Below, one piece after another: positions 1,209 through 62,640 of a DNA stretch of 64,000 bases; within the stretch, counting starts at the first letter, position 1; each line of letters begins with the position of its first letter. The DNA is from Leucoraja erinacea (Eukaryota). The notes beneath the pieces were generated by a model. That model ran no database searches, was not told where the DNA came from, and saw only the letters and a program-made list of their open reading frames with translations. The stretch is taken from contig NC_073393.1 of NCBI RefSeq assembly GCF_028641065.1, positions 12,028,001 through 12,092,000 of the forward strand. The letters are read 5' to 3'. A program made the position numbers and the translations under genes.

Positions 1209-2395
1209 CTGAGGGATGAAGATTAAGAAATTACAAATCACATCTTGCAGCATAGAACATTTGTCATTTATCAATTACATTGGGTAAAATGCACAGTCTT
1301 TACTTCAAAACCTTTTATGTCTTTGTTCACATTTAAAGGTAGTGGTGAATGAACAGCATCAGGAAACCAGTACATTTTCCATTTACTTGAAAATTCAAAA
1401 GATGCTAATTCTGTAAAAAGCATATTTGACAGGTAACTTAATAGGTCAGATTAACAATTAATGTGTACCATGCTGTTTGGATCGGGAGTGTTGAATACTA
1501 AATTCAACATCAAATTGAAAAACATGAATAGGCAGAGAGAAAATAAAATATGATAGGCAGAGAGAAAAATTAAAAAGTAAAAATAAATTCCATTTCACCA
1601 GAATATTTAAATGCAGCAGCCTTGCACCGTTCATTGATATTGAACAGCGAGTCTTTTAGCTATTGCACAGCTTTGGACAGCAAGTTTCTAACTCACAAAA
1701 TAACCAGAACATTTGCCTTCCAATTGCCAGTTTTTGTTATATTTATACCGGGAAGGCAGGTGTCCCTTCGAGGCCAGCATTTATTGTCCATTCCTACTAG
1801 TGCTTTAGTAAGTGATGACAGGGGTTAGCATCCGTCCAACTGTGAAAGATGATGGTAGGGCTTTGACGTTGTCCTGCTTGTAGAAAGGAAAGTTTCATCT
1901 GTGGTTGCATTTCCTGCTGTGACTGACTAGGCCTATCCTTGAGAGTAAGACCCTCTCAGGGCATCCAGTCTCCGACTGTAGTCTCTGTACATTAGATTCA
2001 CAATTGTCCTTTAGTAGGTGATGACAAATACCGTAAATCACGTCCATAGTCATAGTGGTGCAAGATAGAAAATTTGAGAAATTTGACCCTGTGAAGATGA
2101 AAGGAAGCAATATAATTGTTACTTAGGTTGATGTGCCACTTGAAGAGGGCTTTGCGGATTTAGGAGATGCTGCAGTGTACATGTAGATAGTACATAATGC
2201 ATTATGTTGATGCTCTTGTGAAGGACGCAGTAAATGCTGAAGGTGGTGGACGGGTGTAATCATTTGTGGTAAATAAAAATGACATGGCCAAAATGACACG
2301 ACACCAAGACTACAATAAAACAGATTATTCCAAATGCTCAGAGTGACATAAAACTTCATAGTAATTTAGAGTAAATAGATGTGAAAATGTTGGTA

Positions 2396-3628
2396 CAGGT
2401 GCACAACCTTTTATCCGGTGTTCCAGAAACCGAAAAGCTCCGAAAACTGGCCATTTTTTCCAGATGTCGTCTGCGCACCAAAGCTCGCGTTTGGCGCCAA
2501 ACTTGACCCAAAACGACCCACGGTCAACCCAGGTCTGTACTACTGTAGCGGCTGCCTCCTCCCTGGAGACCGGGAGACGCTTAAACATCTGTAAATCATT
2601 GCTTAAATGTTAGTCAGTTAGTTTGGAGGGCTTTTATGTGAAGGGGGGTGAAGGGGTAAACTTTAATTCTTAGTCCCCTACCTGGTCGGAGAGGCGGGGA
2701 GCGGTCAATGCCTTACCGGGTCGCCGTGCAGTAAGCTCCGCAGCGCTGTGGCCGGTGGGGCCGCGGGCGGCGCCGGTTGTAGCTCCGACCCCGGCAACTC
2801 TACCCCTGGCTGCGAGGCGCTCCAAATCCAGCGCGGCCCGCGGCCGGACGCCCCAGCTCCGCGAATGTCGGGAGTCGGCGGCGTCGCAGCGCTGGGATAC
2901 CAGCGGGGTGCGGGCAATGCCTTACCGGGTCGCCGTGCGGCAAGCTCCGGAGCGCTGTGGCCGCCGACACACAACATCGTGGAGCGTCGCTGGATTTGGA
3001 GCCGCGCAGCCAGGGGTAGAGTTGCCGGGGTCGGAGCTCCAACCGGCGCCGCCCGCGGCCGGACGGAGCCCCCAGCTCCGCGGCTCCAAATCCAGCGACG
3101 CTCCGCGAATGTTGGAAGAAGGCGGCCACAGCGCTCCGGAGCTTGCCGCACGGCGACCCGGTAAGGCATTGCTCGCTCCCCGCTGGTATCCCAGCGCTGC
3201 GATGCCGCCGACTCCCGACATTCCCGGAGCTGGGACGTCCGGCCGCGGGCCGCGCTGGATTTGGAGCGCCTCGCAGCCAGGGATAGAGTTGCCGGGGTCG
3301 GAGCTACAACCGGCGCCGCCCGCGGCCGGACGGAGCCCCCAGCTCCGCGAGGTTGGGAGTCGCCGACCAGGTAGGGGACTAAGAATTAAAGTTTCTCCCT
3401 TCACCCCTACACCACCACCACCACATAAAATCCCTCCAAACTAACTGACTAACATTTATGCAATGATTCTTCCGGTCTCCGGGGAGGAGGCAGCTGCTCC
3501 AGACTTTTCAAGCCGCCCGCGCTACCTACCTAATCTACGCTAAAAATCTTCCATTCTGAAATCCGAAAATGTCCGAAATCCGACAAGTGTCTGGTCCCAA
3601 GGCTTTCGGATAAAAGGTTGTGCACCTG
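2396..3628. mobile_element. Non-autonomous Tc1/mariner (pogo/Tigger-like) MITE with GC-rich fold-back interior
   Basis: Perfect 22-bp TIR CAGGTGCACAACCTTTTATCCG at 2396-2417 and 3607-3628, flanked by TA on both sides. Subterminal TCCGAAA repeats resemble Tigger4/MER46. No transposase ORF. Confidence 0.9.
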
Positions 3629-3702
3629 TATCTTCAAACCAAAGTTTAGAAAGAGGGATTTAGATGGTTTAAACTTACTCCTATAATATTGTCTCCTCTT
3701 AC

Positions 3703-3764
3703 CCATAATAATATCTTCTATGTGCCCAATGACTGTATCAAACTCAGCATCAACATCAGATGAA
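3703..3764 (-). CDS. ARL2BP: ARL2BP coding exon 2 (62 nt; SSDVDAEFDTVIGHIEDIIM)
   Basis: Matches SS.SDAEFD.V.G..EDIIM of ARL2BP; ttttccag acceptor, gtaag donor. Confidence 0.96.
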
Positions 3765-4841
3765 CTGGAAAAGAGATTACAATGAGCTGAATAGTAATTC
3801 ACACATACTTATACAATACTGCAGTTTCTTAGAATATATATATCCAATTGTCAGAAATAGGGAGGGAATTAATCATCTTTGTGTTAATTGGTAATGCACC
3901 TTCTCTGGCCCAGGCAAGCTGCAACTGTTAACGGAGGATATTTCTGTGGTGTTCTCTGAAATCCTTAAACTCCTGGCTGTTTGAAACATACAACCCCTGA
4001 GTGGCTTGAAGTCGTCTGAACAAATTGAACATGTTTCATTTTATTCATCCTGTTTTTGAAATTAACAGACTGAAACTTGTCATTTTCTGGACCTACAAAA
4101 CATTCTTGCTTAGAAGAGAGGTGCAATAGGATAATTATTACGTTTTGGAACTTCCACTTCAGAAAACCAAGTTCTGTTGGCATCTTCTTACAACTCCCCT
4201 TGAACTATTTCTATATCCAGATCCTTTCCGAAAACTCTCTTGGTCTGTCTATTACATTGAAACTTCACCCAATACAATCAAATTCTGTTACTTCCTTCTC
4301 AGTGCTCCCAAACACCAACACTATCCCTTTCCCAGTGTTCTTGCAAAACCCCCTTCATGTTCTCCTCGACCTTTGCATTCCTGAATACTTCCACATCAAA
4401 TGAACCATGTACCCACATTTTAGGATAACCTCCTAAATTTTGCTATATGAATTTCCTGAATTAAAAAAAACAAATAATGCACAGTTATTGTTTTGCATTT
4501 ATACTGAATCTTAAAAATGGACATAGGATAAAATCAATGCCTAATAACTGGTAGTAATTTCATGTAAAAATTTTATGATTGCAAAGGATAAGAGCGTTAA
4601 CAATAAAGCACAATTTGACATACACTCAATGCAAATCATATAATCATACAGGAGACCTTATTCTATCTTCTTGAAAAAGCCATACAGACACTCCCCGTTT
4701 CATGCTCTCTTCCTTGGTCCTGTAAATCCTTTTTGAAATGTATTAATATTTACTTTCAACAACACCAGTTATTCTCAACTTTCCCAGTTAACTGAAATCC
4801 CCACATCCATAACAATAACTGTGAACATCCTTTTTACACCA

Positions 4842-5608
4842 TATTATCTGAATGGTGGCCGATTAGGAAAAGGGGAGATGCAACGAGACCTGGGTGTCAT
4901 GGTACACCGGTCATTGAAATTAGGCATGCAGGTGCAGCAAGCAGTGAAGAAAGCAAATGGTATGTTATCATTCATAGCAAAAGGATTTGAGTATAGGAGC
5001 AGGGAGGTTCTACTGCAGTTGTACAGGGTCTTGGTGAGACCACACCTGGAGTATTGCGTACAGTTTTGGTCTCCTAATCTGAGGAAAAACATTCTTGCCA
5101 TAGAGGGAGTACAGAGAAGGTTCACCAGACTGATTCCTGGGATGTCAGGACTTTCATATGAAGAAAGACTGGATAGACTCGGCTTGTACTCGCTAGAATT
5201 TAGAAGATTGAGGGGGGATCTTATAGAAACTTACACAATTCTTAAGGGGTTGGACAGGCTAGATGCAGGAAGATTGTTCCCGATGTTGGGGAATTCCAGA
5301 ACAAGGGGTCACAGTTTAAGAATAAGGGGGAAATCTTTTTGGACCGAGATGAGAAAAACATTTTTCACACAGAGTGGTGAATCTCTGGAATTCTCTGCCA
5401 CAGAATGTAGTTGAGGCCAGTTTATTGGCTATATTTAAGAGGGAGTTAGATGTGGCCCTTGTGGCTAAAGGGATCAGGGGGTATGGAGAGAAGGCAGGTA
5501 TAGGATACTGAGTTGGATGATCAGCCATGATCATATTGAATGGCGGTGCAGGCTCGAAGGGCTGAATGGCCTACACCTGCACCTATTTTCCACGTTTCTA
5601 TGTTTCTA
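4842..5608 (+). mobile_element. CR1-clade LINE, 5'-truncated 3' end (ORF2 C-terminus + tail)
   Basis: ORF 4821-5414 has CR1 motifs ([37 protein letters not shown]); ends in TTTCTATG-type repeats. Confidence 0.92.
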
Positions 5609-7545: not shown

Positions 7546-8349
7546 GTCCAATTCTCTTCTATCATTTTGCAGACATTCGAAGTGTTGGACGTGTTGATGG
7601 CAGACATTCAAAGTGTTGGAGTAACATAACGAGTCAGGTAGCATTTCTGCAGAACACATTTCGGGTCACGATCCTTCTGCAGACTGATTGTAGTAAGGGG
7701 AAGAAAACTGCAATGGTATTCTTGGCTGTCGCATCAACGTGGTTGATCCACGACAGATCGTTGGTAATATTAATGCCAGGGAACCTGAAGCTCTCAGCCA
7801 TTTCCACTTTGGCACCATTGATGCTGGCTCGGGCATGCTTCCTGAAGTCGAAAACTAGCTCCTGCGTCTTGGTGACATTGAGGGAGAAGTTGCTGTCCTA
7901 GCACTATGTTATTAAGTTCTTTATCCCCCTTCCTGTACTTCAACTTCTCTCCTTATCTCACGGCCTTGTGTCTCCTTTTCATCTCTGCCCTTTTGTGCAC
8001 ACCTCTGACCTGTATCTTCCTATCACTTGCCTGGCTTTGTCCCACCCCCATCTCTTCCAGTCTTATCTCCCCCGACTACTACAATATCACAAGATATTGT
8101 CCCTACCCGAACCGTCGCCTATCCATATCCTCCAGAGATACTGCCTGACCCGCTGAGTAACACAACACTCAATGTACAGACTAATGGAGCAGAGCTAACG
8201 CATTACACCCGCTGCATGGAGCAAGAATCATATATTTAAACCAGAAAGACCCACTGCATAGAACGTGACTGGCCTGGGCTTTTTCCGACAGGTTGTCCGC
8301 TATCGTTCGCCATTCAACCAGCACCTTCAGTGAACACAAGGTCAATATT

Positions 8350-16805: not shown

Positions 16806-19129
16806 ATACTTCAAAATTATCTTTCTGTTCCTTTCCTTATCATTCTTTTTTACCTTCTCCTTAAAATGTCACGTGCAAGAAATAGACAAAACAAATTGGG
16901 AGCTCCACATTTTTAACAATTCCTGTATGAAATTTCTTCTGAATATCCCAAGATTCGCTGTTTCTCTTTTCAAAAATGTGGCCTGACCTACTGAGCATTC
17001 CTGCATTTTCTATTTTTACGTGCAGTTTTCTTTCACCCTCGTAGTTTCATTGGCAACTCCATTCCAAAGCGATTCCCAGTCCTCATCTCCTCCGCAGCCC
17101 CCTGATACATTGAGGCACATTATACAAAAGCAGCTATACATAATAGCTCAGGATTGCAGAGAATGGACTGATGTTTTGGGTCTAGACCCCTCTCCACACT
17201 CACCATTCTGAAGGGTCACAATCCAAAACATTGTCTGCCCATTGCCTCCATAGTGTTGCCTGACCTAGTCAATTTTTCCGATATTTGCTCAAGATTGGTA
17301 CATATACAGTTTCTTGTGTCTCCACATATGAATAACTTCACATTTTCAACTTTGCCAGCCATTAATGGGGGCACCAAAAGGGTCAATACTGGAAGTTTAA
17401 AATATTCAGCTTTGATAAAATAGAGTATAAAATTCACAATGATGCAAAAATGATGGGCAAAGGAGCTGTGAAAATCACATAAGATTATCTGCAAGTGAAG
17501 AGAAAAGTTAAACGAGTGCCAATCCCTTGACCAATCATGGGACACAACGATTGGGAAGGAAGACAGATGTGAAAAAGAGAACTTGATGGTTCATATGGCC
17601 TATTCCTGCTCGTCTTATGTTAAACTGGATAGTTCATTCATTACAAATTTGGAAAACATGGAGACTACTGAATCAACTGCCTTCATGTTTTCTTCTACCA
17701 AGGCAATGACAACAGCACCACTTAAATCGATCGAATTGTTTGAATATATTTCTCCTTCAATATTATTCAAAAATAACTAGTTCGTTAAGTTTATAGCATT
17801 TTCCTTCCCCTGCAAATAAACCTAATCATTTCCTGATTGTTACAGCTGTGTTAGCAGATTTCAACGAGCAAATGGTAATTATTGCTGAATTCATGACAAA
17901 TAGTGTTGATCCACCAAGAATCTTTAAGATACCACCACCTTTCCCCCCCCCCCCCCCCCCCCCCCCGACCGTCAGTCACTTCCACTTGGTCAATACAATT
18001 TCATTTTTGGACACACTTGCACACAACTTTAGCTTAGTGAAATATTGCAAGACATTTTAGAAGTACTTCAACAAAATTTGTCACTAAATCACACTGTAAA
18101 TCTCTGATAATCTGCTACTCGAGTATTCAGAAATCCACATGGTGCAGCATCTGGCTCACCATCCAAAATTGTGACGGTTCAACATTTGGCTTTGGTGAAC
18201 GAAATGAGCAAGGCAAATAAGCTCACAAGACATAGGAGCAGAATTCAGCCATTCAGCCTATTGAGTCTGCTCCACCATTTGATCATGGCGGATCCATCTT
18301 TCCCTCTCAACCCCATTCTCCTGCCTTTATCCTGCAACCTTTAACACCCTTACTAATCAAGAAGCTACAGGAATATACATCTACCCAAAAGGTCACCTAC
18401 TTGTTGGGGAGTTAGTCTCTTTAAACTCATCTGATTACATTGGCTGCTCTTCCTTGAAACTTAGCTGGCTCTGTTTCTGTGGTCTCCTCAAACTTGACAT
18501 TCAACCCCAAGTTTATCATTTTACAGAGAGTGAATTTTACAGAGAGGCATTAGCGCACAAAAAAAAGTCTGGAAATATCTGTTAGTCTATCTGTTAGTCC
18601 AGCAAAGTTTTGAACCTGCAGGATTAAAAGGAGGTTTAAGGAAGGCACAGAAAATAAACCAGAGTTTCATTGAGACAATTTCCGTGGCAAAGCAGCAGAT
18701 GGCTCAGATGCTAATCGGGGAGTGATTAAAAGGGGGGGGGGGGGGGGGGGAGTGAATAGATTTGGAGCACAATGATCTGAAGGCTGCAGAAATGGGGACA
18801 GTGAACCTAACAAGTCTGTGAAACATTAGAATTATGGCAGGAAGGTTGTGGAATAGGAGCCAAAATGTATCAGCAGGCATTAGATAACAGTCAACAAGAA
18901 AGACCTCAAATGCCATTTTACTTCCTTACCCAGTAATCAGCATAATGCAAAGATCAGGAACCATGTTCAAGACATGGTGTCTGGATAATTCAGTTAATTA
19001 TTGGGCTGTCAAGAAACAAGCCAATTATATTTCACATTTATCACTAGCCATTGAGGCACATCAAATTCAATTGTTTGCTGCAATCAAGTTTAAAACTGAA
19101 ATAAAGTTACGAGGGGCGAGTAAATGTCA

Positions 19130-28127: not shown

Positions 28128-28247
28128 AATATGCCACTAAGCAATGACCCTATCTGAAAACATAAGCAGTTGAATTTTTTTTATAACCAGCTTTTTAAAA
28201 CTTAGAATTTTATTTAAACAGAACTCAAACAAAGAAGCCATGGTGAA

Positions 28248-28945
28248 GACTGAAGGTAGACAAAAATGCTGGAGAAACTCAGCGGGTGAGGCAGCACCTA
28301 TGGAGCAAAGGAATAGGTGACGCTTCGGGTCAAGACCCTTCTTCAGACTAATGTGGGGGGGGGGGGGGGGGGGGGTGGGGGGGGGGGGGGGGGGGGGTGG
28401 GAGGGAGGGGAGAAGAAGAAAAGAGGTGCAGACAGTAGGCTGGGAAGGGGAGGGGAAGGAGGGAGAAAGCAAGGACGGCCTGAAATTGGAGAAGTCAATG
28501 TTCATACTGCTGGGGTGTAAACTACCCAAGCAAAATATGAGGTGCCCCATTTGCGGTGGGACTCACTCTGGCCAAGGAGGCCAAGGACAGAAAGGTCGGA
28601 TTCGGAGGGGGAGGGGGAGTTGAAGTGCTGAGCCACCGGGAGATCAGGTTGGTCAATGCGAATTGAGTGGAGGTGTTGGGCGAAGTGATCGCGAAACATG
28701 TGCTTGGTCTCAGCGATGCAGAGCAGTTGACACCTAGAACAGCGGATGCAATAGATGAGTTTGGAGGAGGTGCCTCACCCGGAAAGACTGCTTGGGTCCT
28801 TGGATGGAGTCGAGGGGGGAGGTAAAGCGACAAGTGTGGCATTTCCTGTGGTTGCAAGGGAAAGTGCCAAGGGAGGGCGTGGTTTGGGTGGGAAGGGACA
28901 AATTAGCCAAGAAGTTACAGAGGGAACGGTCTCTGCGGAAAGCCA
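28248..28945 (-). mobile_element. Penelope-like element 3' end: GIY-YIG endonuclease remnant, pyrimidine-rich UTR, hammerhead-containing terminal repeat
   Basis: Frameshifted pieces AFRRDRSL...PCNHRKCHTC (Zn knuckle), DHFAQHLHS...LPVAQHFNS and HLIFCLGSLHPSSMNIDF are typical of the PLE C-terminus. Hammerhead-like motif at 28316-28350. Confidence 0.88.
28316..28350 (-). ncRNA. Minimal hammerhead ribozyme-like motif (one core mutation)
   Basis: Minus strand reads UAGU CUGAAGA A GGGUC UU GACCC GAAG CGUC ACC; the core GAAA has become GAAG. Confidence 0.7.
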
Positions 28946-29450
28946 ACAGTTCACCAACACAACCATTTTGGAACATATTAACATATGCAATATGAGTACA
29001 TCCCTGTGGCGGAGTGTCCCTACAAATATTGTGTACATAATATCAAACATCATCAGTATGTGACATTATATACTATTGTGCAGTAAAAAGCATTAGGCCA
29101 GATAATGATGACAACTGGTAATCATTACTTTAAATGGTGCAAGTACAGGATAACATTAGTATCCATTCTACAGTAATAACCAACAAACAATTTGCTCTAC
29201 ATCTACTCTCACTCTTACCCTCTTCATAAAGGCAAATAATGAATAAAGATATGATTTCAATAAAGTTCAATTTAGTACTCTGATCATGGCTAATCCATAA
29301 AATGAAAGCTTAAGGCTATCCCAACGCACAGTGAATTGCTGATATCTGGCATTTGGTTCCTTTACAATTTACTCTTTCCTTCCACCGTTGGATGGCACTA
29401 ATCTCCACACATTCTGGATTTCACAGTGATAGGGTCAGCACACTCTACTA

Positions 29451-31321: not shown

Positions 31322-31839
31322 CTATTTTCAACTTTTTTTCTTAATTACTCAATGGGCGATGGGAGACTTTGTTCAATTACATATCCCAAAAACAGACATT
31401 TAAGGTTTTTTTACAATTTAAATGGTTAGAAACACAGAAAATGTTTATTACAAAAATCTCAACATTGCTCAAGTTACAGCATTAACTCAAATTACAGCAT
31501 TAACTCAAATTAAAGCCGCTTTAACCATCTAAGTAACTAATTACAATATCATCTACCTCAAATCTACACCATTTATTGAACGATAGCAACATAAGGATAA
31601 CATTTAATGCCAAACAAATGAAGTGATGTGGTAAAGCGTTTAAGGATAGTGCTCAGAAGAAAATTTCAACTTGCACTCCAAACCCCAGAACACATTACAG
31701 TTCATCAGTTGTAACACACATCTGTAAAATACCAAGACAAAAATTGCACTTATAGTTTGCTATAACTTGACAGTTGTGTTCACAAGAAACCTTGTGTGAT
31801 AGAAAAATCGCATTAGAAAAACAGTTGTGCATGGGGGCC

Positions 31840-33643
31840 CTTGGTTTTCAGAGTTACCATGGCTGAGAATCCAGCCTCACAGTGGACCAATTGGGACAGG
31901 GCCCTCTTCGAAAGGACAGGACTGTCCTTCACTTTCTGCCAAAACATGGCGAGCTCTTGTTCCATGAAGTCACTCTTGAGCTGCGCATCTTCACGAATTC
32001 GATAAAATTCAACCTTCGCAGCCACGTCAGTATTGCTGATGGCAACATCTTCAACGGAAAAGGGTCGGATGATCCACTCATAATGAGAGCGGTCGTCCAG
32101 TCCGGGGAAGTAATGTTCGATGGCTTCACTAATTGCCAGAAGGTGGGTTGAGATCGCCTCGTGGAAGTGGCATTCAGCATCTGGCATAGCATCCAGGAGA
32201 GTCATCATCTCAGGGGAGATAGTCGTGTCATCGTCCTGGACTCTTCTCTAGTAAAGGTGAATCTTCCTCCTGAACTTTGTTACGAGCAGTGTGTAGCATT
32301 GGGAGGTTTCCTTGAAGTGACAGGGTCAAGAAGTTCACCTCAGTGAGGAAGTCAGCTAAGTAAACACCTTCATCACGAACAGTTCATCCTGCATCTTTTC
32401 ATGAAGCTGATTCTCCTCTCGGTACACCCTTTCTCCAAGAACAGCACTATTTCTTCTCGAAGTTGAACCACATGATTGAGAACTTTACCACGCGAAAGCC
32501 AGCGCACGTCTGTGTGGAATATCAGAACAGTGAAATCGGCGCCCATTTCTTCACACATCACTTTGAAGATTCTTGAGTTTGGTGCGCTTCCTCGGATGTG
32601 GTTCACAAACTTCACCACATCTGGAAACACTGCTCGAAGACCAGGAGGGAGAGTCTTCATTGCTAAAGTATGGCAATGTATCATGCAGTGGGTGAAGGAG
32701 ACATGGGGAGCGACATCCTTCACGAAGGCTTTGAAGCTGGATCTGCATCCGACCATGGAAGGTTCCCATCTGTACACGCCCCGACAAGTCGTTCCCAGCC
32801 AAGCTCATGTTTGATGAGGAAGGCTTCCAGCATTCTGAACACATCTTCTCCTCGAGTGGTAGTGGCCAATGGGTCCGAGAAAAGGTACTCCTCCTTCATG
32901 GCTTCTCCGTGGAGGTAACGAACGCAGACTGGCAGTTGGGAACATGAAGCAACATCTGTTGACTCGTCCAGTTGCAGTGAATACACTGGACTGCTCTTCA
33001 CAGCGCTCACTACTTGCAGCAGAATATCATTACTCATATCTGAGATTCGACTTTTGACTGTGTCATTCGAAAGGGAAATCTGCCTGAACTTGTTTGACTG
33101 CTGTTCCCCCAGCACCAACATCGCTGCTTCGAGAAGGCATGGCTTGATAAGCTCTTCACCGACGGTGTGAGGTTTCTTAGTCTGTGTGATTCGATAAGCA
33201 ATCCGGTATGAAGCCTCCAGCGCTGCTTCATTTTGACGATGCAGTGAGTGACCCGTCGAATCGATGCGGGAACCCTTGAGTGCGGCTTCTTTTAGTTTGA
33301 AATAGTCCACGCCCTTCCCCGCCAGGTCGAAGTGACAAAACTCCAAATGGATCTTCAGTTTGCTCGACTTCATGCTCTCGTGGTTCAAAACCTTGCCGCA
33401 GATAACACATTGTGGCTTGACCACGGATTTTTGAACAATGTTTGTGAAGCCGAACTTGAGAAATGCTTCACTATGCGTGCGCTTCTTGGCAGACATGGTT
33501 GACAACACACAGTTTGTGTGCGTATAAGTAATCACATACGTGAACAAAATACTGTGTGTGGTATGTACCTAAAAATAGGCTCAACAAGTTGATATGTTAT
33601 TTTTGACTCCTTCATGACCCCCGGACAAACCCCCAAAAAACTG
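31840..33643 (-). mobile_element. hAT transposon, Buster/Charlie (ZBED5/ZBED8-like) family; frameshifted transposase (ATG ~33496)
   Basis: BED finger (PQCVICGKVL..ESMK.SKLK.HL..CH), SLQLDESTDV, CTDG, HCMIH...[15 protein letters not shown] and CEAGFS motifs split across three or more ORFs. Confidence 0.92.
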
Positions 33644-35610: not shown

Positions 35611-37299
35611 CTAAAAGAAATTAAAAAAAGTTACTCAGCATATTGTACCAAAAGTCACAATCTGCAGGAATTATCGAAAGCCAGAAACAAATCTTAACGG
35701 AAGCTCTTTTGGTTACACAAGATTATTTTTTTATTGACTGTATTGTACAATGTACTGTACAATGTACTGATTAAATTAACAATGAATCATCTGCATTTTA
35801 CAATACATAGACTTTATTTGATCAAATGCAATCAATTCTTTGTCACTAACCATGTATTTTCAGCCAGACGGTGACTATATTGGCTCTCAGGGAAAAAAAA
35901 TCAACAAGGTGCATCCCAAATCATGACTAACCATTTGCATTTTACAGATAGCCACAATGAAAATTGTTGTAATCCAAATTGATGCAATGGAAATGAAAAC
36001 ACAAAATAACTGGGAACTGGAGCATTTAGCCAGCATTACACTTTCAAATGTCACAGATGAAATGCATTTCATATTTAAAGATGTACATAACTAAATGTTT
36101 TTTTTTAATATATTTACTTATCTTTCCAGACAGCCCAGATTTCACAACTCTGCTTACGAATTCATCCCCAATTTAATTACATGAATCATCCTTCTACTTC
36201 CAAGAATAAACATGTCAGATCTCCTAATCATCAGCATATGTTTTTTTACACCTAATGTAAATCATATAGTTTATGATCTGAAAAGACACCATCCAATGTC
36301 AATGAGATCACAAGTTTGACTATTGATACATGTGTTAGCTTTGTAGATAGACACAAAATGGAATAACTCAGCGGGCCAAGAAGCATCTCTGGATAGAAGG
36401 AATGGTCGATGCTTCGGGTCAAAACCCTTCTTATGTTCAGTTGCTGGAGAGAGCACCTGGATCAATGGGAAGTAGGTTTTAATTTTACTGAACAGAATCA
36501 ACACCAAAATCTTGGAGCAGTGCAATATCACAGAGTTAATTCACATCCTAAAATATGAACCTCTATTTAATGGGCAAGTCTGTTTCATAGCAAGGCTTAT
36601 ACATATTGTATGTGCTTCATTTCTTCCCCTTCCCTTTAAACTAGAAAGGGATATGGTTTTCTCATTATTATCATCACTGCACCAAAGACCTAGTTATAAT
36701 CCTGACCTCAGGTGCTGTCCATATGATTTGCATATTCCCCATGACCATGAGGATTTCATCCCATATCCCGAAGATGTGCAAGTTGAATGTTCATTGGCCA
36801 CTATAAATTGCAGCTGGTGTGTAGGCGAAGACTGGAATCTAGAGGTGGCATTGCTCATTTGTAAATAGGGCAAAAATAAAAAGGGGATTAAGAGGCAGGA
36901 TTAGTGTAAATAAGTGGCTGCCGCTCAGTGTAGATATTTTGTGCTGTATGTTTATGATCATCTATGCTGCAGGTAATCAAAATAACAAGAGCAAACTATA
37001 TTCAAGCATACTTACGTTTAAGCAAACTATTGGCTAAACTGTGAGGAAGGCAAATCACCTGCACAAGTCTTGTACTACATAACACAACCAGTTTCCCTTC
37101 ATTCTTTCCATTAACATCCCGAGCTGCATGGGATAACTTCTCTCAATAACTTCTCTTTTAAGTTTTCCCACTTTCTACGAAGGTGCAGGCATGCACACTT
37201 GCATGTTGTTTTGTTGGCTATGGGAAAGAGTCCCAGAGTAGGTTCATTCCAAATCTACTCTGGCATCCTTTGCCTACCGTTCCCCTGCTACACGTCCTC

Positions 37300-37590
37300 A
37301 CCTGACATCCCATTAACTTCCACATCCAACATATGATCCTTCACTTTTTGCCCGTCCAAAGGCATCCTGCCACCAGTCATATATCCGCTAGTCTTCGCCC
37401 CTCTTTCTGCAGGGACAATTTGTTCCACGACTCCAAGGTCTGCTCAAACCTTACTCCACCCCCTACAGTTTTGCCCCGCACTTTCAGTTGCAACCATAAG
37501 TGCTATACTTGTTCCTATACTTCTTTCCTTCCACTTATCCAGGGACATGACAGCACTTCCAAACAAGACAGAAATTCACATGCCTAATCT
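37300..37590 (+). mobile_element. Degraded Penelope-like element fragment
   Basis: ORF 37333-37587 (HF..VQRHPATSHI...FCRD...TFSCNHKCYTCSYTS.L..IQG) is homologous to 28734-28976. Confidence 0.7.
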
Positions 37591-38835
37591 ATTACATTCA
37601 TTGGTTACTCCACATTGATGTAGAATGCCTGTAACGGCTATCATGAGCAAGTTTTATATTATTTATATCAAGGCTGTTGGGTGTATGGAACAAGCTGCTG
37701 GAGGAGGTAGTTGAGGCAGGTATTATTGCAACATTTAAGAAACATTTAGTGGCACACAGATTGGATAGGTTTAGAAGGATATGGGCCACTTGCAGGCAGG
37801 TGGGATTAGTGTAGTTGGGGCTTTTTGGTTGGCGTGGGCGAGTTGGGCCAGTGGGCCTGTTTCCACGCTGTATGGCTCTATAATTTCACAAAGATAATGG
37901 TTGGGACAAATGAGCAGAGGTTTTCTTGCATTATGGTAGAGAATCATTCTCACTGATTTAAAAACATATTTCATGGAGGTTTTTGATCTGGAAGAATGCT
38001 TCCTTTTTTTGTTTATCGCTTAATGTCTATTATTTTGTGTTTCACTGTTTTAAATTAAATGACATTTAAAAATGGAAAATTTAAATGTGTACATCATTGA
38101 AGAGAAACAAAAACTCTCTCAGCAAACTCAAAATATCAGCCATCTCTGTTGGTTTGTTCAAGATGTGGGGTCTCAGCAGTGTGCCCCCCAAGGCCTATTT
38201 GCAAGTGAACTGAGCAGTAATATGCTTCTTCCCTAGCAGTAATATGTCCCTCTTCCCTTAACCATGGAAAGTTTGGCTCTAACCCCCTAGTCATTCCTTC
38301 TTCTCTTCGCTCTTGTCAACAGAAGATACAAAAGCTTGAAAGTGTGCATCATCAGACTCATTGAAAGTGTATCAGACACATCATCAGTGCATCAGACTCA
38401 TTGAAAGTGTGCATCATCAGAGCTTATTCCCCTCTGTTATCAGGCTTCTGAATGGTCGTTCCACAAGCTAGGGTACTGTCCGATTCACCTCCACCCAATT
38501 GTGGACATTGGACTTTGTCTAAGGAAATTATGTGCTACAATGCCACAAACTATATTCAGCATTCTGTAACTTCCCCTTTGCTCGACCTAATGCACTGGAG
38601 TTTGATTTGTATTTATGTATGGTATAACTGATCTGTTTGGACAGCATTCAAAACAATGCATTTCACTATACTTTGGCACACATGACAATGATAAACCCAA
38701 AACTCAGCTTTGATAAGCTAACGTTAAAAAACAATGTTGTCTTGGCAACTCAGTGACACATTCAAGTTTGCTTTCACATTGTTTGATGTGTGATAATTCT
38801 TCACTTTAAATCAGTTGCTTATAGTTATTTAGGAA

Positions 38836-38975
38836 AGTACTGCAGATGCTGGTTTAAATCAAAGGTAGACACAAAATGCTGGAGTAACTCAGCGGGACAG
38901 GCAGCATCTCTGTGGAGAGAAGGAATCAGATGCTGCCTGTCCCGCTGAGTTACTCCTGCATTTTGTGTCTACCTT
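38836..38975. repeat. Near-perfect palindrome of Penelope-derived terminal segments
   Basis: 38862-38909 pairs with 38928-38975 (48 bp, one mismatch), 18-nt loop. Confidence 0.9.
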
Positions 38976-39719
38976 GCTTATAGTTGTTGGTTGGCATAGC
39001 CAGAGCATCCCAAATTAGTAAACAAAGTGGTTTGTTTGCTCGGCATTTTGTGTTGGCTAGCTGTGTTAGAGGGTGTGGTATAATGCAATGGTAATGATAA
39101 TGCACCTCAATCCTTAAAAATACATTAGTGAGACAAGCAGATTTAAAAACATATTCCACTGCTACTGACACAAGCTTTTTATTCAATTTGGTATCTTCAA
39201 ATTTCTTCAGATGCCCCACAGAAACTCATTGCTTGATGCTGTATACAATGTTCCACCCTGCATGATAATATCACTATTGTAAGATACCAGAGATTCCCTA
39301 CAATAGAAAAGCTTTGCTAATACATCACTAATCATATCACTTGGGGACATCCGGAAAGAGCTTGCCCACCAATTAAATATTATTCCCGCGTAGCACACAT
39401 GTAATGTTGCAAGTTCTTCAACTAATTGGTCAAGACTCCAGCTAATATGTGCTCTTTTTTTGAAAGAATATCATAGGGTTACATACTTCAACCCAATAGC
39501 TGACAATACCTCCATTTAAAAATTTCAGCTGCAAAGACTCTACCTCAGAAACGAGAGCTACCTATTGACTTAAACAACATATCATTAATTTGATTGCTTT
39601 TACAAATGAGGTAGGCTGGCAAAAACAGTACATCTGATATATGCATTCCCCGAGTGATCCGATAGATTTACTTTCATTATTTACTAGTTTATTGAAGCCT
39701 CTTGCTCATTCTAATGACT

Positions 39720-40515: not shown

Positions 40516-41699
40516 AATGTCTTGGGAACACTGCAGAAAACGTTGACATGTGCAAGGACATAATTTGGAGCATTGTAAATATTGAGAGAATAGTAATAGA
40601 CTCAAGGGGTGGGGGAGGGAGGAAAAGGAAGAAACTGGAGGGGTAGGAAATGCAGACAGTCGATGAAATTCAATGCAGGAAAAAGGTAGCACAAACTTGT
40701 TAGAAAAATATGAAAGATTAGGCAAGGTAAATGCAACATTTCAAAGGTAAAGCAGGAGGAAAACAAATCCAAGGTTGTCCAATCTCTTCTCACAGCTAAT
40801 CTCGTCTAATCCAGACAGTATTGTAGTAAACCTCTTATGCACCTTATCAAAAGCCTCCACATTCTTGTTCTAATAGGGCAACCAAATAGGGCAACCAAAA
40901 TGGCATACAATAGTCCAAATATAGCCTAAGAAGAGCCCTAGAAAGCTGCCATATAACTTCCTGACATACACAATGCCCCAACCTATCCTGGCAAGGATAT
41001 CATACGCCTTTTTTTATCATGGAAAAACAAAGAACTGCAGGCTCTTGTTTACTAAAAAAAATGACAAAAGTGTTGGAGTGAGACAGCTGGTCTGGTAGCA
41101 TCTTTGGAGAACATGATAGATGATATTTCAGGTTTGGGACCTTTATGGAATATCTCTTGTGTCCTAAAGGGTCCCGGCTCAAAACCCCACTTTATCCATG
41201 TTCTCCAGAGATGCTGCCCGACCTGCTGAGTTACTCTAGCATTGCAGACCATTGGGAAGTGTGTGTGGGGGGGGGGGGGGGGGGGGGGGGGGGGGAAAGA
41301 GAGGGGTGGGGGGAAATTACTGTTATTGCAGCTCATGGTGTAGCCCCCGAATACAGCACTTTCTTCAGGCCGCTACCACCGATAGGATGTGCTTGGTCAC
41401 CGTGGAACTCCCTCGCCTCTCATCAGCTGCCACTTCTACCTGTCGACTGTCGCTTTGTCTGTTCCCCATTCCACCTCAACCTCTTCCTCTTCTTCCTTTC
41501 CCATAGTCGCCAACATCTTTCAGGGTGGAGTGGGGTCACCGGTGAGATGGAGGGGGTAGCAGTAGAAGGGAGGGAAGGGAAGAGGGGGTATCCAGGTGGG
41601 CAGAGAGACGGGAGGTCTCTACATGGTTCTGTCTGCAAAGTTGTTAACCAACCCATTTACAATTATGCCCAAATCATTACATCTTTAGTGAGAATAACG

Positions 41700-42245: not shown

Positions 42246-44541
42246 GATTTATTAACTCCCTAGTAGACGGAGCTTTTGAGACGACTTCTGCAGATTCTTT
42301 CAATTGCATCTTGTGAAATACGTGGCAGAACAGAAGAGGAAAAAGAAAAAATATGGATGCTGGAAATCCGAAATAAAACAAATAAATTCTGCAAGTTAAT
42401 AAAGTTTTAAGTTGTAGAAGACAAGGAAGACAGGAACAAGAAAAGAGCAGCGAAAGATATCTGGGGTGATAATAGGATTAATTAGGAAATTAAAGTCTTG
42501 GGAAATGAAAATATTTTTTTAATCTCAAGTAGTTGAAATTTGTGTAAAAGTGTTCAGCTCGAAATATTTCATTGTTTTGCAGCTACATTAGAACAAAGCA
42601 CGATTCCATGGTCAGGGTGTGAAAAAGAAATAAAGTGACCTAAAAAAGCTCAAGTTCTTGAGAATGAATGGATGTTTTCCACAACTCAGTCGAACAATTT
42701 GTACCAGATCGCCACATTGCAAAATGTACATCATAACATTAAATGCAGCACAGTCAATTGTAAACAATGCATACTAAATGGCAAGCACTAGAGGAAAACT
42801 GTTATTTTATTTGAAGATGCTTTGGAAAAGGAAGAAATAAAAAGGCAGGTGTTACATCTCTTGCAGCTGCAAAGGAAGTGAAAAGGGGAGCAAATGTCAT
42901 TTAAGTAAATGAGAGAAGCACAAGGACTACAGTTGTAGCAAAAAAATACTTTTACAATAGTTAAACATAAGGATATGTGTGTATTGGTGATATTGTAATA
43001 GAAAATATGGGAACTCGTGATTGAATTTCGTGTTTGGGTGGAGAAAAGTAAGGTCCAGGGAACACTATTCCAGTTTTGGAAGGCTTGAGAGAAGTGCAGG
43101 TATAAGTTCTACGTAATCATTTCATCTTTCACAGATGCCACCTGGCCTGTTATGCACTTCCAGAACATGCTCTATTTCACATTTCCAGCCAACATTTCGC
43201 TTTTACTTGAAAGTTATTTTCATTTCACACAAACTCTTTCACATGCTCAAAGTAAGTGTTGGATTATGCCCTTGTGAAAAACATTCTGATTAAGCTAGCC
43301 TTTGAATATTTGCATACCCCTGTACTCTTAAATATCCATCTCCTTTTCCAATTCATCTCTTTAATATGGCATCTAGTTTCACCTTTGTGCACACATTGAC
43401 CTTTAAAAAAAAAAAAAAAAGAGCTGCCAGAGGAAGCAGTTGAAGCAGAGGCAAAAGCATGCAAAAGACATTTTGACGGATACATGAATAGGAAAGGTGT
43501 ATAGGGATTTAGGACTGGGTTTTGAGATGGTCATTTTGGCCGAGGGGCTATTACTGTGCTGCATGACTCTACATATTTTCAAATTTGTAAATAAATAATA
43601 AACTATTTAAGTCTGCATTCATAATAAAATTCTGTTAACTCAAGTAGAAATTCAACAAAAATCTGCATGTGCTGAAACTCTGATTAAAAAGAAAATATTG
43701 AATCTGATGAAGAATCATTGACTTGACATGTTTCTCGCTTTGCCTGACCTACTGGGCAAAAGGCACAAATTCACAAATGCCAAATTGGCAATTGGGGTCA
43801 CTAAAATCATGAATGCCACAATTTGCATAACAATAAGTTTTAAATTTCTTTATTATTACTGTCCTATCAGAAATTAAAAAGATCCAAAGAAGAGTACCGA
43901 TCCGAAACATCCCCTGTTCAACCTGCTAGGTTCTTCCACAATTTGCATTTTCACAAATAAAATGGGCTTGGAGAACATACCAGTGCAGATGCGAGTTTGA
44001 TCAGATCCGAGTTCACTCATGTACACAATTGGGTGGAGCCTTTTACTCATCATTAATGAATCATAACTCCATTAAAGTTCCCATAAAGCATTTCTGAGAA
44101 ATCGAAAACGGTGGCTCCTACATAAGAGAAAATGACTTTCACCTCTTCAATTATCCCTTTCTCAATTATTCTAAATTGCACTTGGGTAAACCTGGGCTGT
44201 GTTGTATTGCCATTGCCAACCCGATACAGTAAAGTTAAAACTTAAAATTGACAATAGAAGTTTGACAGGCGACTCAATCCTTCCGGGTGTAAAGACAGAA
44301 CTCCCGTCTGTCCCAACCCTAAAGTTAGACATAAAAGATGTGTGGAAAAACTTCAAGGCAGTCAGACTTCCCGAAATTCGACCCAAATACAGTACTTGGA
44401 ACTTCTTACGTTTTGTTCCACCTCCTCAGGGCCGTTGATCACCCTCGAGATGCAAAATAAGGTGGCGGGATGGGGAGGGGTTGAGGAAAAGTGGGAGCTC
44501 GACTGCAGGTAGTTAAGGGAGAGAGAGAGCGAAGCAACTTA

Positions 44542-47756: not shown

Positions 47757-48960
47757 AGGCGACCATTTCACTGAACACTTGCGCTCGGTTCGTCAAGGTC
47801 TGTTGGATATCTGTTGGATATCCTAGTTGCTAACCATTTTATCTCCTCTTCCATATTGACCTTTCTGTCCTGGACTCCTCCACCATTGCCGCATGCAAAC
47901 TGGAGGAACTATTCTCTTGGGTAGCTTGCAACCCAACGGTATAAACATTGGATTCTCCAATTTTTGGTAACCAACCTACAAACTTGAAAGAGTGGGTTTA
48001 CGGGAACTAATTTTAACCTCATGTAAAAGACCAAATCTAATCAATACTTCACTCCCACAGCACCGCGTTGAATTGCACGCCAGGATTTTGCTCACAAATC
48101 CTCAAGTCCCAGACTTAGTTTAATGGGAAGTTGATCAATAAAGAGTTAAAGTAACATCAATACATTTTGCTAACCATTTTAACATGTCTTCCCATTCCCG
48201 TACTGATCTTTCTGTCCTGGGACTCCTCCATTATCAGAGTGAGGCCACTTGCAAACTGGAGGAAAAACACCTCATATTCTGCTTGAGTAGCTTACAACCC
48301 AACGTTATAAACATTGAATTCTCCAATTTTAGGTAACAACAAAACCCTCCCCCTGTCCATACTTCCTCCACATTCTCCTCGCTTCAGGAATACGGAGAGA
48401 AAAGAAATGAGCAGAAGGAGAAGGGGAATTGCTGAATGGGTGCATGAGAAGTTTGGTGTAGCCTCACTCTCAGTGGGGGAGTCCAAGGGCAGACAGGTAG
48501 GTATCGGAATTGGAAGGGAAATTAAAATGTTCAGCAACTGAGCTCCAGCAGATCCTTGTGAACAAATCGCAAGTGTTTATCAAAGTGGTTGTCTAGTCTA
48601 TGCACATCGACGTACAAGAGGCCACATCATGTTTTAGGAGCAGAATTAGGCCATTCGGCACATCAAGTCTACTGTGCCATCAGTCATGGCTGATCTATCT
48701 TTCCCTCTCAACCCCATTCTCCTGCCTTTGCCCCGTTACCCCTGACACCCTTACTAATCAAAAGCTGTCTCCAATAGACCAGGTCGGAAAAGGTGCAAGT
48801 AAACCCCTCTCCCACTGTAAGCCCGGAGGTGAGGGAGGAGGTTAGGGACAGGCAATGGTGCCTTCAATGTAGTCCCACCACCAGTCGCATCTTCCCATCT
48901 CCACCACTTTCAACACAGACCACGCTCTCCAAGATTCCTTGGTTCACTCATCTCTCCCAT
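47757..48960. mobile_element. Cluster of degraded Penelope GIY-YIG fragments in both orientations, plus a CR1 tail
   Basis: Repeated DHF.EHLRSV, VANHF, DLSVLGLLH, KLEE.HLIF.L.SLQP.INIEFSNF remnants (47757-47970 +, 48165-48335 +, ~48400-48600 -, 48850-48960 +). Confidence 0.75.
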
Positions 48961-50397
48961 CGTGAGGCACTTTCACCAACTACCTACGTAAAGGCACTAT
49001 CATCCTGAACTTCTTCTCAAGCAAATGATATTCAAAGAAAAAAATAATGAAAACTGACTGCAGTATTATACAGTTGTATCTGCAGAGTTTATAATAAATA
49101 TATGAGATACATAAGAGATCTCAAACATTCACATTCAACATTCACATGGAAAGAAACCTTCCGTAAATGTTTTATCTCTTGTGGTTGCATGAAACTCTTG
49201 CCTCTTTCTGTGCTGACTCTGGATAGTTTGGGGGTAAATACAATTTAACCAATTCATTAAAAAAAAAGTACAATTATATTTTTCTGGGTACAACTAAAAC
49301 AGTTGAATGGGCTTCATGTGGGAGATTTCAAGACTACCAAGAATATATATATTAAAAATATTAGTCTCAATAGAACTGAGCAGAGACAATGAGGGGGATA
49401 TGATAATTGGTGTCGTTGGGTTGGAACAAAAAGATTCAGTTAAAATCCTCATTCACGGTTACCTCCCTGTTACTCTCATTGCAGGAAGGAACTTCCCAAT
49501 CATTTGGTTCTATTAACTGGGAATCAGTGGCAAAAACAAACATTTCTCAGTTATGTTTGCCCAAATCTGATGTGAAGCAGATCAACGAAGCATTGCATGC
49601 ATCGCAGGTAGAATCATTTATAATGCAAACCCCATATTAAATCAACCTATTATCTGCAGTTCTATATAATTAAATAATATGTTAAAGGGATGTAGAAGAC
49701 AAAAAAAATGCAGAAAAAAGCATTCAGATATAATGAGAAATGTATAGTATGTGATAAGACCAGGAACGATTGCTATAAATACATGTTTAAAGCTAGTCAC
49801 ATTTTACAACAATTACTTAAAATATAGTAAGAAATGATAGTAAAATTAACAACGGTTGAATTGAGTTTTACTATCTTTGGTGTAAACCAGTATCTGCAGT
49901 TCCTTCCTACACTGTTTCAGTTTTAGTGGGCATTACGGAAAAGTTCCAGTTGAATTTCTTGTCACTGTGAGCACAACCACACAGATAAGAGTTTATCAGC
50001 CAGACTTTAAAGACACACATTCTCAACAGCACCACACCCCGATGGCTACTGGAATGTTGATGACAAAGATGTGGCTGCCCCTGTTCTGCAAGAGAAGAGG
50101 AAATGTGCTTCCAAGTTCAGTGAAACGTAGTTGGAGAAGCTGATAAACAATGGCACCCACAGGGATGCCCTGTGTTCAAGGAAGTGACAATAGTTAAACC
50201 TCCGGGTGAGGCAACATCTATGGAGAGAAGGAATAGGCGACGTTTTGGGTCGAGGCCCTTCTTCAGTTTCTCCAGCATTATTTGAGTTTCTCCAGCATTT
50301 TTTGTCTACCTTCGATTTTTTCAGCATCTGCAGTTCTTTGATCTGATCCACTGATTTTGGCAAACATGCCTCAGTTCTGCTTGGTTTGGCCATTGAA

Positions 50398-51499: not shown

Positions 51500-51740
51500 T
51501 TGGAAGGAACTGCAGAGCAATGTGCTGGAGTAACTTAGCGGGTCAGGCACCATCTCTGGATAAAAAGAATGGGTGATGTTTCGGGTCGGAATCCTTCTTC
51601 AGACTGAAAGTTAGTCTGACTTTCTTGAAAGTTCTTGGCTTTCAGTCTGAAGAAGGGTTCCGACCCAAATTGTAATCCATCCTTTTTCTCCAGAGATGCT
51701 ACCCGACTACCTGAGTTACTCCAGCACTTCGTGTCTATCT
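51500..51740. mobile_element. Inverted pair of Penelope terminal repeats, each with a hammerhead-like motif, following a PLE fragment (51330-51490)
   Basis: Minus 51571-51606: CAGU CUGAAGA A GGAUUCCGACCC GAAAC AUC ACCC. Plus 51643-51680: CAGU CUGAAGA A GGGUUCCGACCC AAAU (degenerate). Confidence 0.8.
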
Positions 51741-51999
51741 TGCGTGACAGTTAGCTGAGCATGGTCTGCCTCAGTGAGCGGTGAGCTGATTGTTATCACT
51801 CTTTCCCTATCTCTGTTTATTTGCACTGACAATATGGTCCTTAAAGACAGCTCTTCCCTTCATAAGTGGCAAGCCCCATCTCCGGAATTGTTTTCTCAGC
51901 CAATCTGAGCTTTCAGCCAACAATCAGAGTAATTCTCCATACTACTTCCACTTTGATCTCTCCGTCTTCATTCTTCTCCTTTGCTTTGCTCGACATGGG

Positions 52000-52931: not shown

Positions 52932-55289
52932 CACTGAGAAGCGAGGAAACTCACCCAGTACAATGTTTTAATATCGTCACTCATTTAATACCTGTACATG
53001 CTGGTTTATGGGCATTTTTTTTCAAAGCAAGGAAAAAATGTAATGGTTGTCTGATATCTATGGAACTTCCGATGGTCTTGGCATTTTGTAATTAATTGTC
53101 AAAATAAAACCCTCCAAAAGTCCCCAAAAAAATCCAATATGATTTGCTTGATGTGGGGAAGTAGTAGTATGTCCTAATCTCTCTGTTTTTTCCCTATGTT
53201 TCTCTACCGTTGGAATTGGTCTCATCTGTAATTTTGTTTATTTTTATGACTTAAAATCTTCCAAGAATAGTTTTATTTTGTTAATACTTTTAAAAGAAAT
53301 GTGTTAAAAAAAAAAGGGGTGGGGGGTCTTTAGCAAGATACTGCGTTAACAGACAGTTAACTCTGGCTGGTGGACAGCGTTCTGGGCAGGGATGCTGTAT
53401 TGGAACGATGCTCTCTAACAAGCAGCCAATGCTTGGGCATGCCCGAGCACCAGCCCTGAGTTCTGCATTAAGATCCAACAGGATAATTTCTTACCCTGAC
53501 CTGGACTGGAGTACCTCGGCGGATCAGGCAACATCTCAGGAGAACATGGATAGGTGAACTTTCGAGCCCGGACCCTTCTTCAAACTGTGTCTACACCCAT
53601 CCCTCTGTTTTATAAACGTGGATAAACCCCAAATGCCAAGTAAATCCATTTATAACCCACAGTTCGGTCATCGACAGGCGAATCGACTCCTCTTTTTGTT
53701 CCCGATGGAAGGTACGAAAATAATAGTTAACGAAGAAAAGAGATAGAAGGACGTGACATCAAATCGATGAGCGTTTGTTTACCTTTGTTTCGATCGAAAC
53801 CGCGATTAGGTGAAAAGTATATTTCCAGAAAAAGTAGCGACTGTTGGAGAGCAAGCGCCATTCGCCGTGCAGCATGAGATTATTTTCGACCAGGTTGTTC
53901 CCGAGTGTGTGAAAACTACACTTGTCCCTCTCATTTTTGTCTGCACCCATCACCACGCTCTCGCCTTTAAATGAGACTTCATCCGCCCCGCTTCTAAGCT
54001 TAGCATTGCCATAACATCAAACCCCAAAATAAAATTATTTGCACAGGAAAGAAATAAAGAAATGACTGAAAACCCCCCACAACGCACCCTGATAAAACGG
54101 AAAGCAATTACTGCACCACTAAGAAGTTTGCATGCAGCCCCCGTGATGGTATGAGATGGGAGTAACGTTGATATTCTGGAACAACTGTTGGAAACAATCA
54201 AAGTCATCTGGATCATGGAACATTAGTGTTATGTGCTCGGCTCCAATATATCAGATAACAACGAGCGTACAAAATAGGGACCTGGTTTCTTGCTACACTC
54301 CAGTGCGGTTATCAGGAAGGACAACCGGCCTTTATGGTCAAGTTAAGACATAATATTTTTAACAACTTTCAACATAAAGGATATAAAAAGTGTGATGCTA
54401 GAAACGTGGCGACTCTTGTGTACTGCCTCAGTGTAATCTACTATTCTCATACTTCCCGTACTTAAGCACTTGCTTATAGTACAGTGAGATCTTTACAGAA
54501 TTGTGTGCAGGAAATTTCACTGTACCTAGTAACAATAAAGTACCATTGAACACAACTCATTCAACAGGAAAAAAAGAGGATTAATGGGTAACAGTGTAAA
54601 CTACTGACATAGGCTACAACTATTTTATTTATTGTATAACTATTACAAGAATGGGCAGTGCATCAATAAGATTTAAAGAATGGCGATCGCCGTTCCTTGT
54701 TTGAATCAATGTAGAACTAGCCACCTTATGGGGGATAGCCCTGAGGAAGTGCATAAAACCTTACTGAACAAAATGAGATACAGTACCATGTAGTTGAGTG
54801 TGCTGTTGACAGCCACCACTTATTACCCAGAATAACTGATATAAATATCACCAGCAACCGCCTGCCAGGGAAAAAATAGCAAAGATAAAACTGCTTATGG
54901 TGATAACTCTGTGGGCAGCCAGAGTGGAGATGATTGGGAAATTCTCCTGCAAATCAAGCATGTTGCTCATGCAGCTAGAAATAATTTTATGCAAACGCCA
55001 AATTTGTAACTTATCTCCCTACATTTTTCTGCTGAATTTACCCCATTTTTATTAGAAAGTGCTGATGTAGTTTATTTTATGTTCATATGTTCTGATTTTC
55101 AGTATGAATTAACGTTGCTATACATAAGGATGCTGATTCACACTGTCCCATCTTCAAATTCCTTGGCTGCACAAGACGTCAACAAACTAAAGGAACAGAA
55201 TTAAATGCTGCCATTTATTTGACACCTTTCAGGTCCAAAATTGCACAAAGCAAAACCACACGAAAAGCTATGAGATATATGGTGAGATG

Positions 55290-62520: not shown

Positions 62521-62640
62521 CAGTTCTGATGAAAGTTATTTACCTGAAACGTTACCACAGTTTCTCGCGCCACAGATGCTGTATGACCTGCTGAGCAGCA
62601 CTCTAGCATTTTCTATTTCATATTACCAGCAGTATTTTCC
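62521..62640 (+). ncRNA. Hammerhead-like motif of a second, older Penelope terminal-repeat subfamily
   Basis: CAGUU CUGAUGA A AGUUAUUUACCU GAAAC GUU A, followed by the usual CACAGATGCTG..TGACCTGCTGAG segment. Confidence 0.6.

Follow-up and report, generated by a model that had tools for sequence, protein, structure and literature searches.

A minimal hammerhead in the pseudo-LTR of a high-copy Neptune-type Penelope-like element of Leucoraja erinacea, with dispersed copies that are probably inert

A hammerhead-like motif beside the remnant of a GIY-YIG endonuclease in the Leucoraja erinacea genome raises the question of whether the many dispersed copies of this motif act as ribozymes, replicate through self-cleaved RNA, or are carried along by a retroelement. 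The motif lies in a stretch of 64,000 nucleotides, analysed as a whole and called the window below (contig NC_073393.1, positions 12,028,001 to 12,092,000, assembly GCF_028641065.1). A preliminary description had proposed a dispersed hammerhead system carried by Penelope termini, an interpretation that is, taken as a whole, partly supported. We consider it probable that the feature is the pseudo-LTR (pLTR) of a Neptune-type Penelope-like element (PLE), with a hammerhead that is likely to function only in the RNA of master elements and dispersed copies that are likely inert passengers.

Window positions 28248-28949(-) hold a dead, 5'-truncated Neptune-type PLE of which only the tail piece is present, comprising the following parts.

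28479..28949, minus strand: 3' end of the Neptune-type PLE ORF (three-frame translation; tblastn to PLE protein P0004)
28352..28478, minus strand: pyrimidine-rich 3' UTR with a poly-C tract, common to GIY-selected loci
28346..28351, minus strand: initiator-like hexamer, TCAGTC in the family and TTAGTC here (5'-end pile-up; consensus from PMC5580651)
28317..28348, minus strand: minimal type I hammerhead motif, read from the sequence
28252..28316, minus strand: remaining pLTR to the first 3' end class, a 65-nt end segment; the optional 35-40 nt tail is absent here
28248..28251, minus strand: four additional bases between element end and flank, seen in the sequence

The ORF piece contains a Cx4CxxC linker and a GIY-YIG endonuclease remnant damaged by frameshifts, deletions, the change of YIG to CIA and loss of the stop codon. 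It aligns to P0004 with E values of 7e-11 and 7e-9 and is 85-88% identical to 39 other copies in its own genome. The hammerhead follows 130 nt downstream of the GIY-YIG remnant and consists of a 2-bp helix I, the core, an extra A, a 4-bp helix II with a tetraloop, and an ACGU palindrome. Read from 28348 to 28316, the minus strand gives GU CUGAAGA A GGGU CUUG ACCC GAAG CGUC ACC, which together with the translation and tblastn evidence for the ORF remnant bears out the original sighting of a hammerhead-like minus-strand motif at this place. Cleavage is predicted between 28319 and 28318. The disabling change in this copy is A15.1>G at 28323, which is not CpG decay; because A15.1-U16.1 is characterized as the most conserved and usually essential hammerhead pair (accessible text of PMC3088659), the focal copy is predicted to be dead. 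A strict definition of the minimal hammerhead includes the family consensus and, owing to A15.1>G, excludes this copy. An Rfam scan gave nine matches at E<=5, none of them to a hammerhead family. No direct target-site duplication (TSD) was found when looked for at the focal copy, and in its place a perfect 7-bp inverted repeat (TGGTGAA / TTCACCA) bounds the insertion at 28241-28247 and 28950-28956, reaching 10 matches with a 2-nt gap when adjacent bases are included. This repeat is possibly filler reverse-copied from the opposite junction.

The insertion sits in sense orientation inside an RSPRY1 intron, between the exons at 29693-29553 and 26924-26865; coding exons of this gene were mapped over window positions 12204-44940(-), with a ray protein as the best named match (76%). 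Broken DNA-transposase-like reading frames, presumably hAT/SPIN-like, also lie within an RSPRY1 intron at 31816-33568(-). Elsewhere in the window, three exons at 268-3766(-), which we take to be those of ARL2BP, match the C-terminal part of P0091 (PF11527), a fused protein in the database. Further PLE ORF fragments, of greater divergence, occur at 37279-37518(+), 47916-48333(+) and 63870-63962(+), and long reverse-transcriptase frames of other LINE-type elements at 60785-62032(+) and 4737-5411(+).

The association of ORF and hammerhead holds beyond the focal locus. Among 29 other loci picked on the ORF piece alone, 24 run through a pyrimidine-rich UTR into the hammerhead (one only partly), and five break off before it. 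Copies end at CTACC(TT) or past the optional tail, which is present in 9 of the 24 loci. After the end of the ORF come the pyrimidine UTR, the hammerhead, 65 nt, the first 3' end, the optional tail of 35-40 nt, about 35 nt more, and the ATG of the next ORF; in the partial-tandem loci listed, a pLTR is followed by the ATG. Upstream walking recovered one ORF in which reverse-transcriptase (RT) motifs, DKG among them, are joined to GIY-YIG by the linker CNRRKCYTC; it matches 85 proteins of RT-GIY-YIG type; the own-genome RT and GIY-YIG pieces score below the curated Pfam cut-offs, and none of the loci fetched carries an intact full-length ORF. RT with DKG, a CX2-5CxxC linker plus GIY-YIG at the C terminus are given as Neptune features in the accessible text of PMC8557442, and the linker in the own-genome copies, CNRRKCYTC, has this form. 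We therefore classify the element as Neptune-type, a call made by motifs, not by tree. The family also shows pLTRs, partial tandems, inverted 5' copies and the optional tail. In the family consensus, AGATGCTG in the end segment pairs perfectly with CAGCATCT in the tail, with a smaller hairpin inside; this structure is a candidate for protein binding or priming. In a derived family (L253, L263-L268), mostly on small contigs, a 3' pLTR fragment runs into a new pLTR start, and short tandem repeats have arisen in the segment downstream.

A profile trained on own-genome copies gives 26 matches in the 64,000-nt window, among them the following.

7597..7689, minus strand: decayed solo pLTR (E 2e-14)
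17156..17279, both strands: faint inverted pair (E 1e-7 and 2e-5)
36320..36435, minus strand: decayed, 5'-clipped pLTR (E 6e-24)
38826..38979, both strands: inverted head-to-head pair of 3' halves, without the hammerhead core (profile match)
41024..41243, both strands: inverted head-to-head pair, cores clipped (profile match)
43881..43919, plus strand: faint copy (E 2e-4)
50203..50341, both strands: inverted pair with G12>A in the minus-strand arm (profile match and lesion reading)
51518..51749, both strands: near-complete head-to-head pLTR pair, both damaged (profile match and lesion reading)
53506..53590, minus strand: decayed copy, C3>U and C15.2 lost (profile match and lesion reading)
62523..62617, plus strand: divergent copy with a CUGAUGA core, probably an older type (profile match)

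All seven main variant sites reported earlier are present at their places and on their strands. Of the fainter sites, those at 17202(-) (E 2e-5) and 43881(+) (E 2e-4) were recovered, and the one at 43705 was not at E<=1e-3. The strict minimal-hammerhead descriptor finds no intact motif in the window and lesions were seen copy by copy, so the claim that every copy here is damaged stands.

The family is very large. In 80 arbitrarily placed 10-kb stretches (800 kb, contigs C1-C32 only) of the 2.19-Gb genome, the profile matches 386 times, with 207 of these in the 400 kb outside the 400 kb used for training; the reversed control gives 0, so the recurrence of the motif is not due to chance. Extrapolation yields about 1.06 million matches genome-wide (bootstrap 0.87-1.26 million), the arms of inverted pairs being counted separately. 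Searched with an exact pattern, the intact motif occurs 32,660 times across the genome and 0 times in the control; figures of about 9,000 motifs in X. tropicalis and 4,000 in the coelacanth, as given in the accessible text of PMC4209133, come from another descriptor and are not like-for-like. The proposal of a high-copy PLE family whose pLTR bears a minimal hammerhead of dimer type is supported.

With compensatory changes missing, support for the fold comes from the core match and from conservation between subfamilies. Seven subfamily consensuses were built from 175 of the 178 spanning copies, one cluster of three being left out, and both CUGAnGA and GAAA-C-GUH are present in the family consensus, so that the hammerhead reading passes the sequence condition that could have overturned it. 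None of the 13 core columns differs among the seven subfamilies, whereas 23 of the 65 columns downstream do (Fisher p 0.008). Most changes within the motif are of a tolerated kind: C/U at H17, A/G at 1.1 (both of which pair with U2.1), CUCG, UUCG or CCCG in the loop, and a U-A to U-G closing pair. The consensus of the oldest subfamily (15 copies) has, by a bare majority, G16.2>A, probably CpG decay, and C1.2>U. An unpaired base after A9 and a helix II with G10.1-C11.1 are present in the family, and the 15.2-16.2 palindrome, which would permit a dimeric helix III, is ACGU in six of the seven consensuses, with a trans duplex energy of just -3.1 to -4.1 kcal/mol. The extra A after A9 and the palindrome, both pointed out in the preliminary description, are thus family features; like the dispersed solo copies, they are already known for PLE hammerheads (accessible text of PMC4209133). 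The proposed fifth stem-II pair would enclose a 2-nt loop, so 4 bp with a 4-nt YNCG loop is the realistic fold, and the search for stem II covariation found no compensatory changes: each pair has one to four both-side changes in 171-179 copies, with only the one-sided U-A to U-G, in subfamilies too close for many compensatory changes to be expected. Helix I has 2 bp, a third pair forming in 30 of 169 copies. In the structure of lowest energy the core is occluded by the 3' arm, but this fold is no stabler than with shuffled 3' arms (P 0.26-0.94), and a designed conformational on/off switch was rejected. A metagenome scan for relatives returned one match (L244:170-230), on a single contig of unrelated context; this minimal hammerhead is of the same type but has a 4-bp helix I, and one case is not enough for covariation.

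Inserted copies, by contrast, decay without regard to the ribozyme. Non-CpG mismatch per copy is 8.2% in the core versus 9.1% in the flank (p 0.21), CpG sites reach 24%, and the core is kept in 45 of 195 spanning copies. Conservation of the core between subfamilies combined with neutral decay of inserted copies indicates that selection acted on master elements and not on the copies.

The ends of copies bear on how they were made. Roughly half begin no more than a few bases from the 5' edge of the hammerhead, and 197 of 386 begin at or before C3. The 209 copies that reach the motif start are preceded by unique flank (80), an inverted partner (65), family UTR (55) or a same-strand neighbour (9); copies often invert head-to-head. 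Among the 80 unique-flank copies, family identity holds in 57 at -1, 52 at -2, 51 at -3 and 28 at -4, with background beyond. Flanking TSDs 9-14 nt long were found at 15 of 71 solo copies versus 1 of 207 shuffled control pairs, and 21 of 118 versus 3 of 353 controls in a larger solo set. Of these 21 TSDs, 18 are no more than 40 nt away from C3 (one of the three farther ones is element sequence), which does not support captured host exons ahead of solo copies; a search of a protein atlas for a host exon gave no usable match. TCAGTC fits the initiator consensus (PMC5580651) at 6/6 positions in all seven subfamilies, and 12 of 13 head-to-tail junctions in one subfamily pick up again at the A of AGT (AAT in one of the 12). 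We infer that the RNA starts at the A of TCAGT, position 28349 in the focal copy. No cap-derived extra G was found at the junction beyond background (13/80 at -4), and, TCAG-T-CTGA being nearly palindromic, fold-back synthesis could also place AG before the core.

Under the mechanism that we propose, transcription of the element would start at this A, and the uncut RNA would serve as template. The protein of the element would nick DNA and start cDNA synthesis internally on the RNA, at either of the two 3' end sites, as in the anole element PAc, for which the accessible text of PMC11167929 describes two internal start sites that define the tail and an uncut RNA template. Priming in the 5' pLTR would give run-off copies of 95-135 nt, the solo copies, and priming in the 3' pLTR would give 5'-truncated, ORF-bearing copies such as the focal one. 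For cleavage, two motifs would have to pair through ACGU and, because helix I is only 2 bp, protein would probably have to assist. The PAc hammerhead is described as cutting only with protein (PMC11167929), PLE minimal hammerheads as cutting weakly and only as dimers (PMC4209133; review PMC6765202), and eight of nine Xenopus dimers did not cut (bioRxiv 2026.07.22.740005), as far as the accessible portions of these sources go.

A further suggestion is that the hammerhead doubles as an internal Pol II core promoter, with the initiator at helix I and MTE/DPE-like bases over helix II and GAAAC-GUH, and that the million solo copies are internal-RT run-offs from the 5' pLTR of uncut RNA. We put this forward tentatively, as a combination that is improbable in its entirety; if true, the positions of the RNA start and of the two priming sites can be read from the genome to the single base, every complete solo copy is a potential promoter, and ribozyme function is reduced to a 2-bp helix I. 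A related reading, in which the ribozyme is vestigial, its helix I worn down to 2 bp, and the sequence is kept for its initiator and downstream MTE/DPE-like bases, we judge unlikely. In its favour, the initiator fit is joined by MTE matches at +18 to +29 (9/12 in four subfamilies, 8/12 in three) and DPE matches at +28 to +32 (4/5 in six subfamilies, 3-4/5 overall), both at their canonical offsets and against the consensus of PMC5580651; A2.3 is unable to pair with C1.3; and, in the accessible text of the sources, an Inr/DPE promoter lies inside D. virilis Penelope (PMC2377424) and rotifer pLTRs show Inr-like TCACT and 5' palindromes (PMC3846280). Yet the 9/12 MTE match is weak, having a probability of 0.047 once the bases required by the hammerhead are fixed, and the changes between subfamilies obey the H17 rule as well as the pairing of the hammerhead. 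In D. virilis, too, helix I of the hammerhead is 2 bp long, and weak cutting in vitro was seen with a version whose helix III had been elongated (accessible text of PMC4209133). The roles of promoter and ribozyme are not exclusive.

The preliminary description called the system retrozyme-like, and short copies could be an independent retrozyme or SINE-like family replicating via self-cleaved, circularised RNA, as retrozymes are said to derive from PLE pLTRs and to occur in a chondrichthyan (accessible text of bioRxiv 2026.07.22.740005). A head-to-tail array of about four 98-nt units does exist (G000:C11:57477462-57477810, L065), with an inverted copy ahead of it, along with further dimers. Every unit of this array, however, carries C11.1>A, which breaks the G10.1-C11.1 pair; some dimers (L258, L259) join two subfamilies, indicating template switching; only 9 of 209 copies have a same-strand upstream neighbour; and one subfamily yields 13 exact head-to-tail junction matches. 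Nor are copy ends enriched at the cut site, where 11 of 386 copies begin within three columns, a per-column rate below that on both sides. Short copies share the ends of the ORF-bearing element, and with TSDs, inversions, optional tails and rare head-to-tail junctions they look like PLE insertions. No run of tandem units with intact hammerheads, the mark of a retrozyme, was seen, though rare dimers may qualify singly; the retrozyme-like label is not supported, and we regard independent replication as very unlikely. It is harder still to credit that the AG ahead of helix I serves as a splice acceptor and that splicing alters or activates the ribozyme. A pyrimidine tract and CAG do stand directly before helix I, a donor-like AG|GTAGT lies at the stop codon, and there is precedent in D. 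virilis Penelope (accessible text of PMC4209133); but use of this donor would leave helix I unchanged. Of 14 junction-pattern matches, the eight examined were all the UTR of another subfamily and none was intron-less, compared with 8,038 matches to the unspliced form. In contigs from runs presumed to be RNA a single joint recurs, and it is off GT-AG sites. Because PLEs keep introns in genomic copies, the lack of intron-less copies does not by itself dispose of splicing.

On the preferred reading, pLTR copies laid down from uncut RNA, the copy ends argue that cleavage plays no part in making an insertion, in agreement with the in vitro result for the anole element. Consequences for the host appear slight. 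In 429 kb inside 13 genes (12 myosin-family spans and RSPRY1), copies divide into 101 sense and 102 antisense, core-intact copies into 15 and 12, and strict-pattern copies into 5 and 2, giving no sign of selection against sense-strand ribozymes in this sample, which has little power for the 27 intact copies. The lack of strand bias in introns argues that solo motifs do not cut host pre-mRNA, and the copies likely ride along uncut without harm to host genes. The role of PLE hammerheads is called open in the accessible text of PMC8557442, and this genome provides a very large natural sample, with intact motifs in the tens of thousands, more than a few subfamilies and copies whose ends are sharp. 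Its value lies in PLE mechanism and not in a new system, as hammerhead-bearing PLEs of this kind are already known. This particular family was not found in literature on hammerheads or Penelope in sharks, skates and chondrichthyans, and the figures or supplements of PMC4209133 and of the 2026 preprint, whose sampling included one chondrichthyan, may list it.

Set against the accessible portions of published descriptions, the motif resembles the minimal hammerheads that metazoan PLEs carry in their pLTR sequences (Cervera and De la Pena 2014, PMC4209133) in its type I core, the unpaired base between 9 and 10.1, G10.1-C11.1, and a palindromic 15.2-16.2 without loop 3. Those motifs likewise occur in pLTRs of fish Neptune, Poseidon and Xena elements, mostly as dispersed singles and close opposite-strand pairs. 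It departs from them in its 4-bp helix II with a YNCG loop and in its 2-bp helix I, compared with 4-5 bp in the Schistosoma families, although D. virilis also has 2 bp. The element shares with Neptune-clade EN+ PLEs (Craig et al. 2021, PMC8557442) an RT with DKG, a CX2-5CxxC linker, a C-terminal GIY-YIG with internal cysteines, pLTRs, partial tandems, inverted 5'-truncated copies and an optional tail of 30-40 bp, and differs in its very large excess of solo pLTR copies. Like the Anolis Poseidon element PAc (Frangieh et al. 2024, PMC11167929), it appears to have two internal RT start sites that define the tail, an uncut RNA template (inferred here), and a hammerhead near the ORF start. The PAc ORF starts inside stem II, whereas here the ATG lies about 165 nt after C3, and cleavage of PAc needed protein. 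Non-LTR retrozymes (bioRxiv 2026.07.22.740005) also carry a type I hammerhead in pLTR-derived sequence, and a few tandem units exist here too, but in retrozymes the units, each with its own hammerhead, are arranged in tandem, whereas the copies described here are mostly solo or head-to-head.
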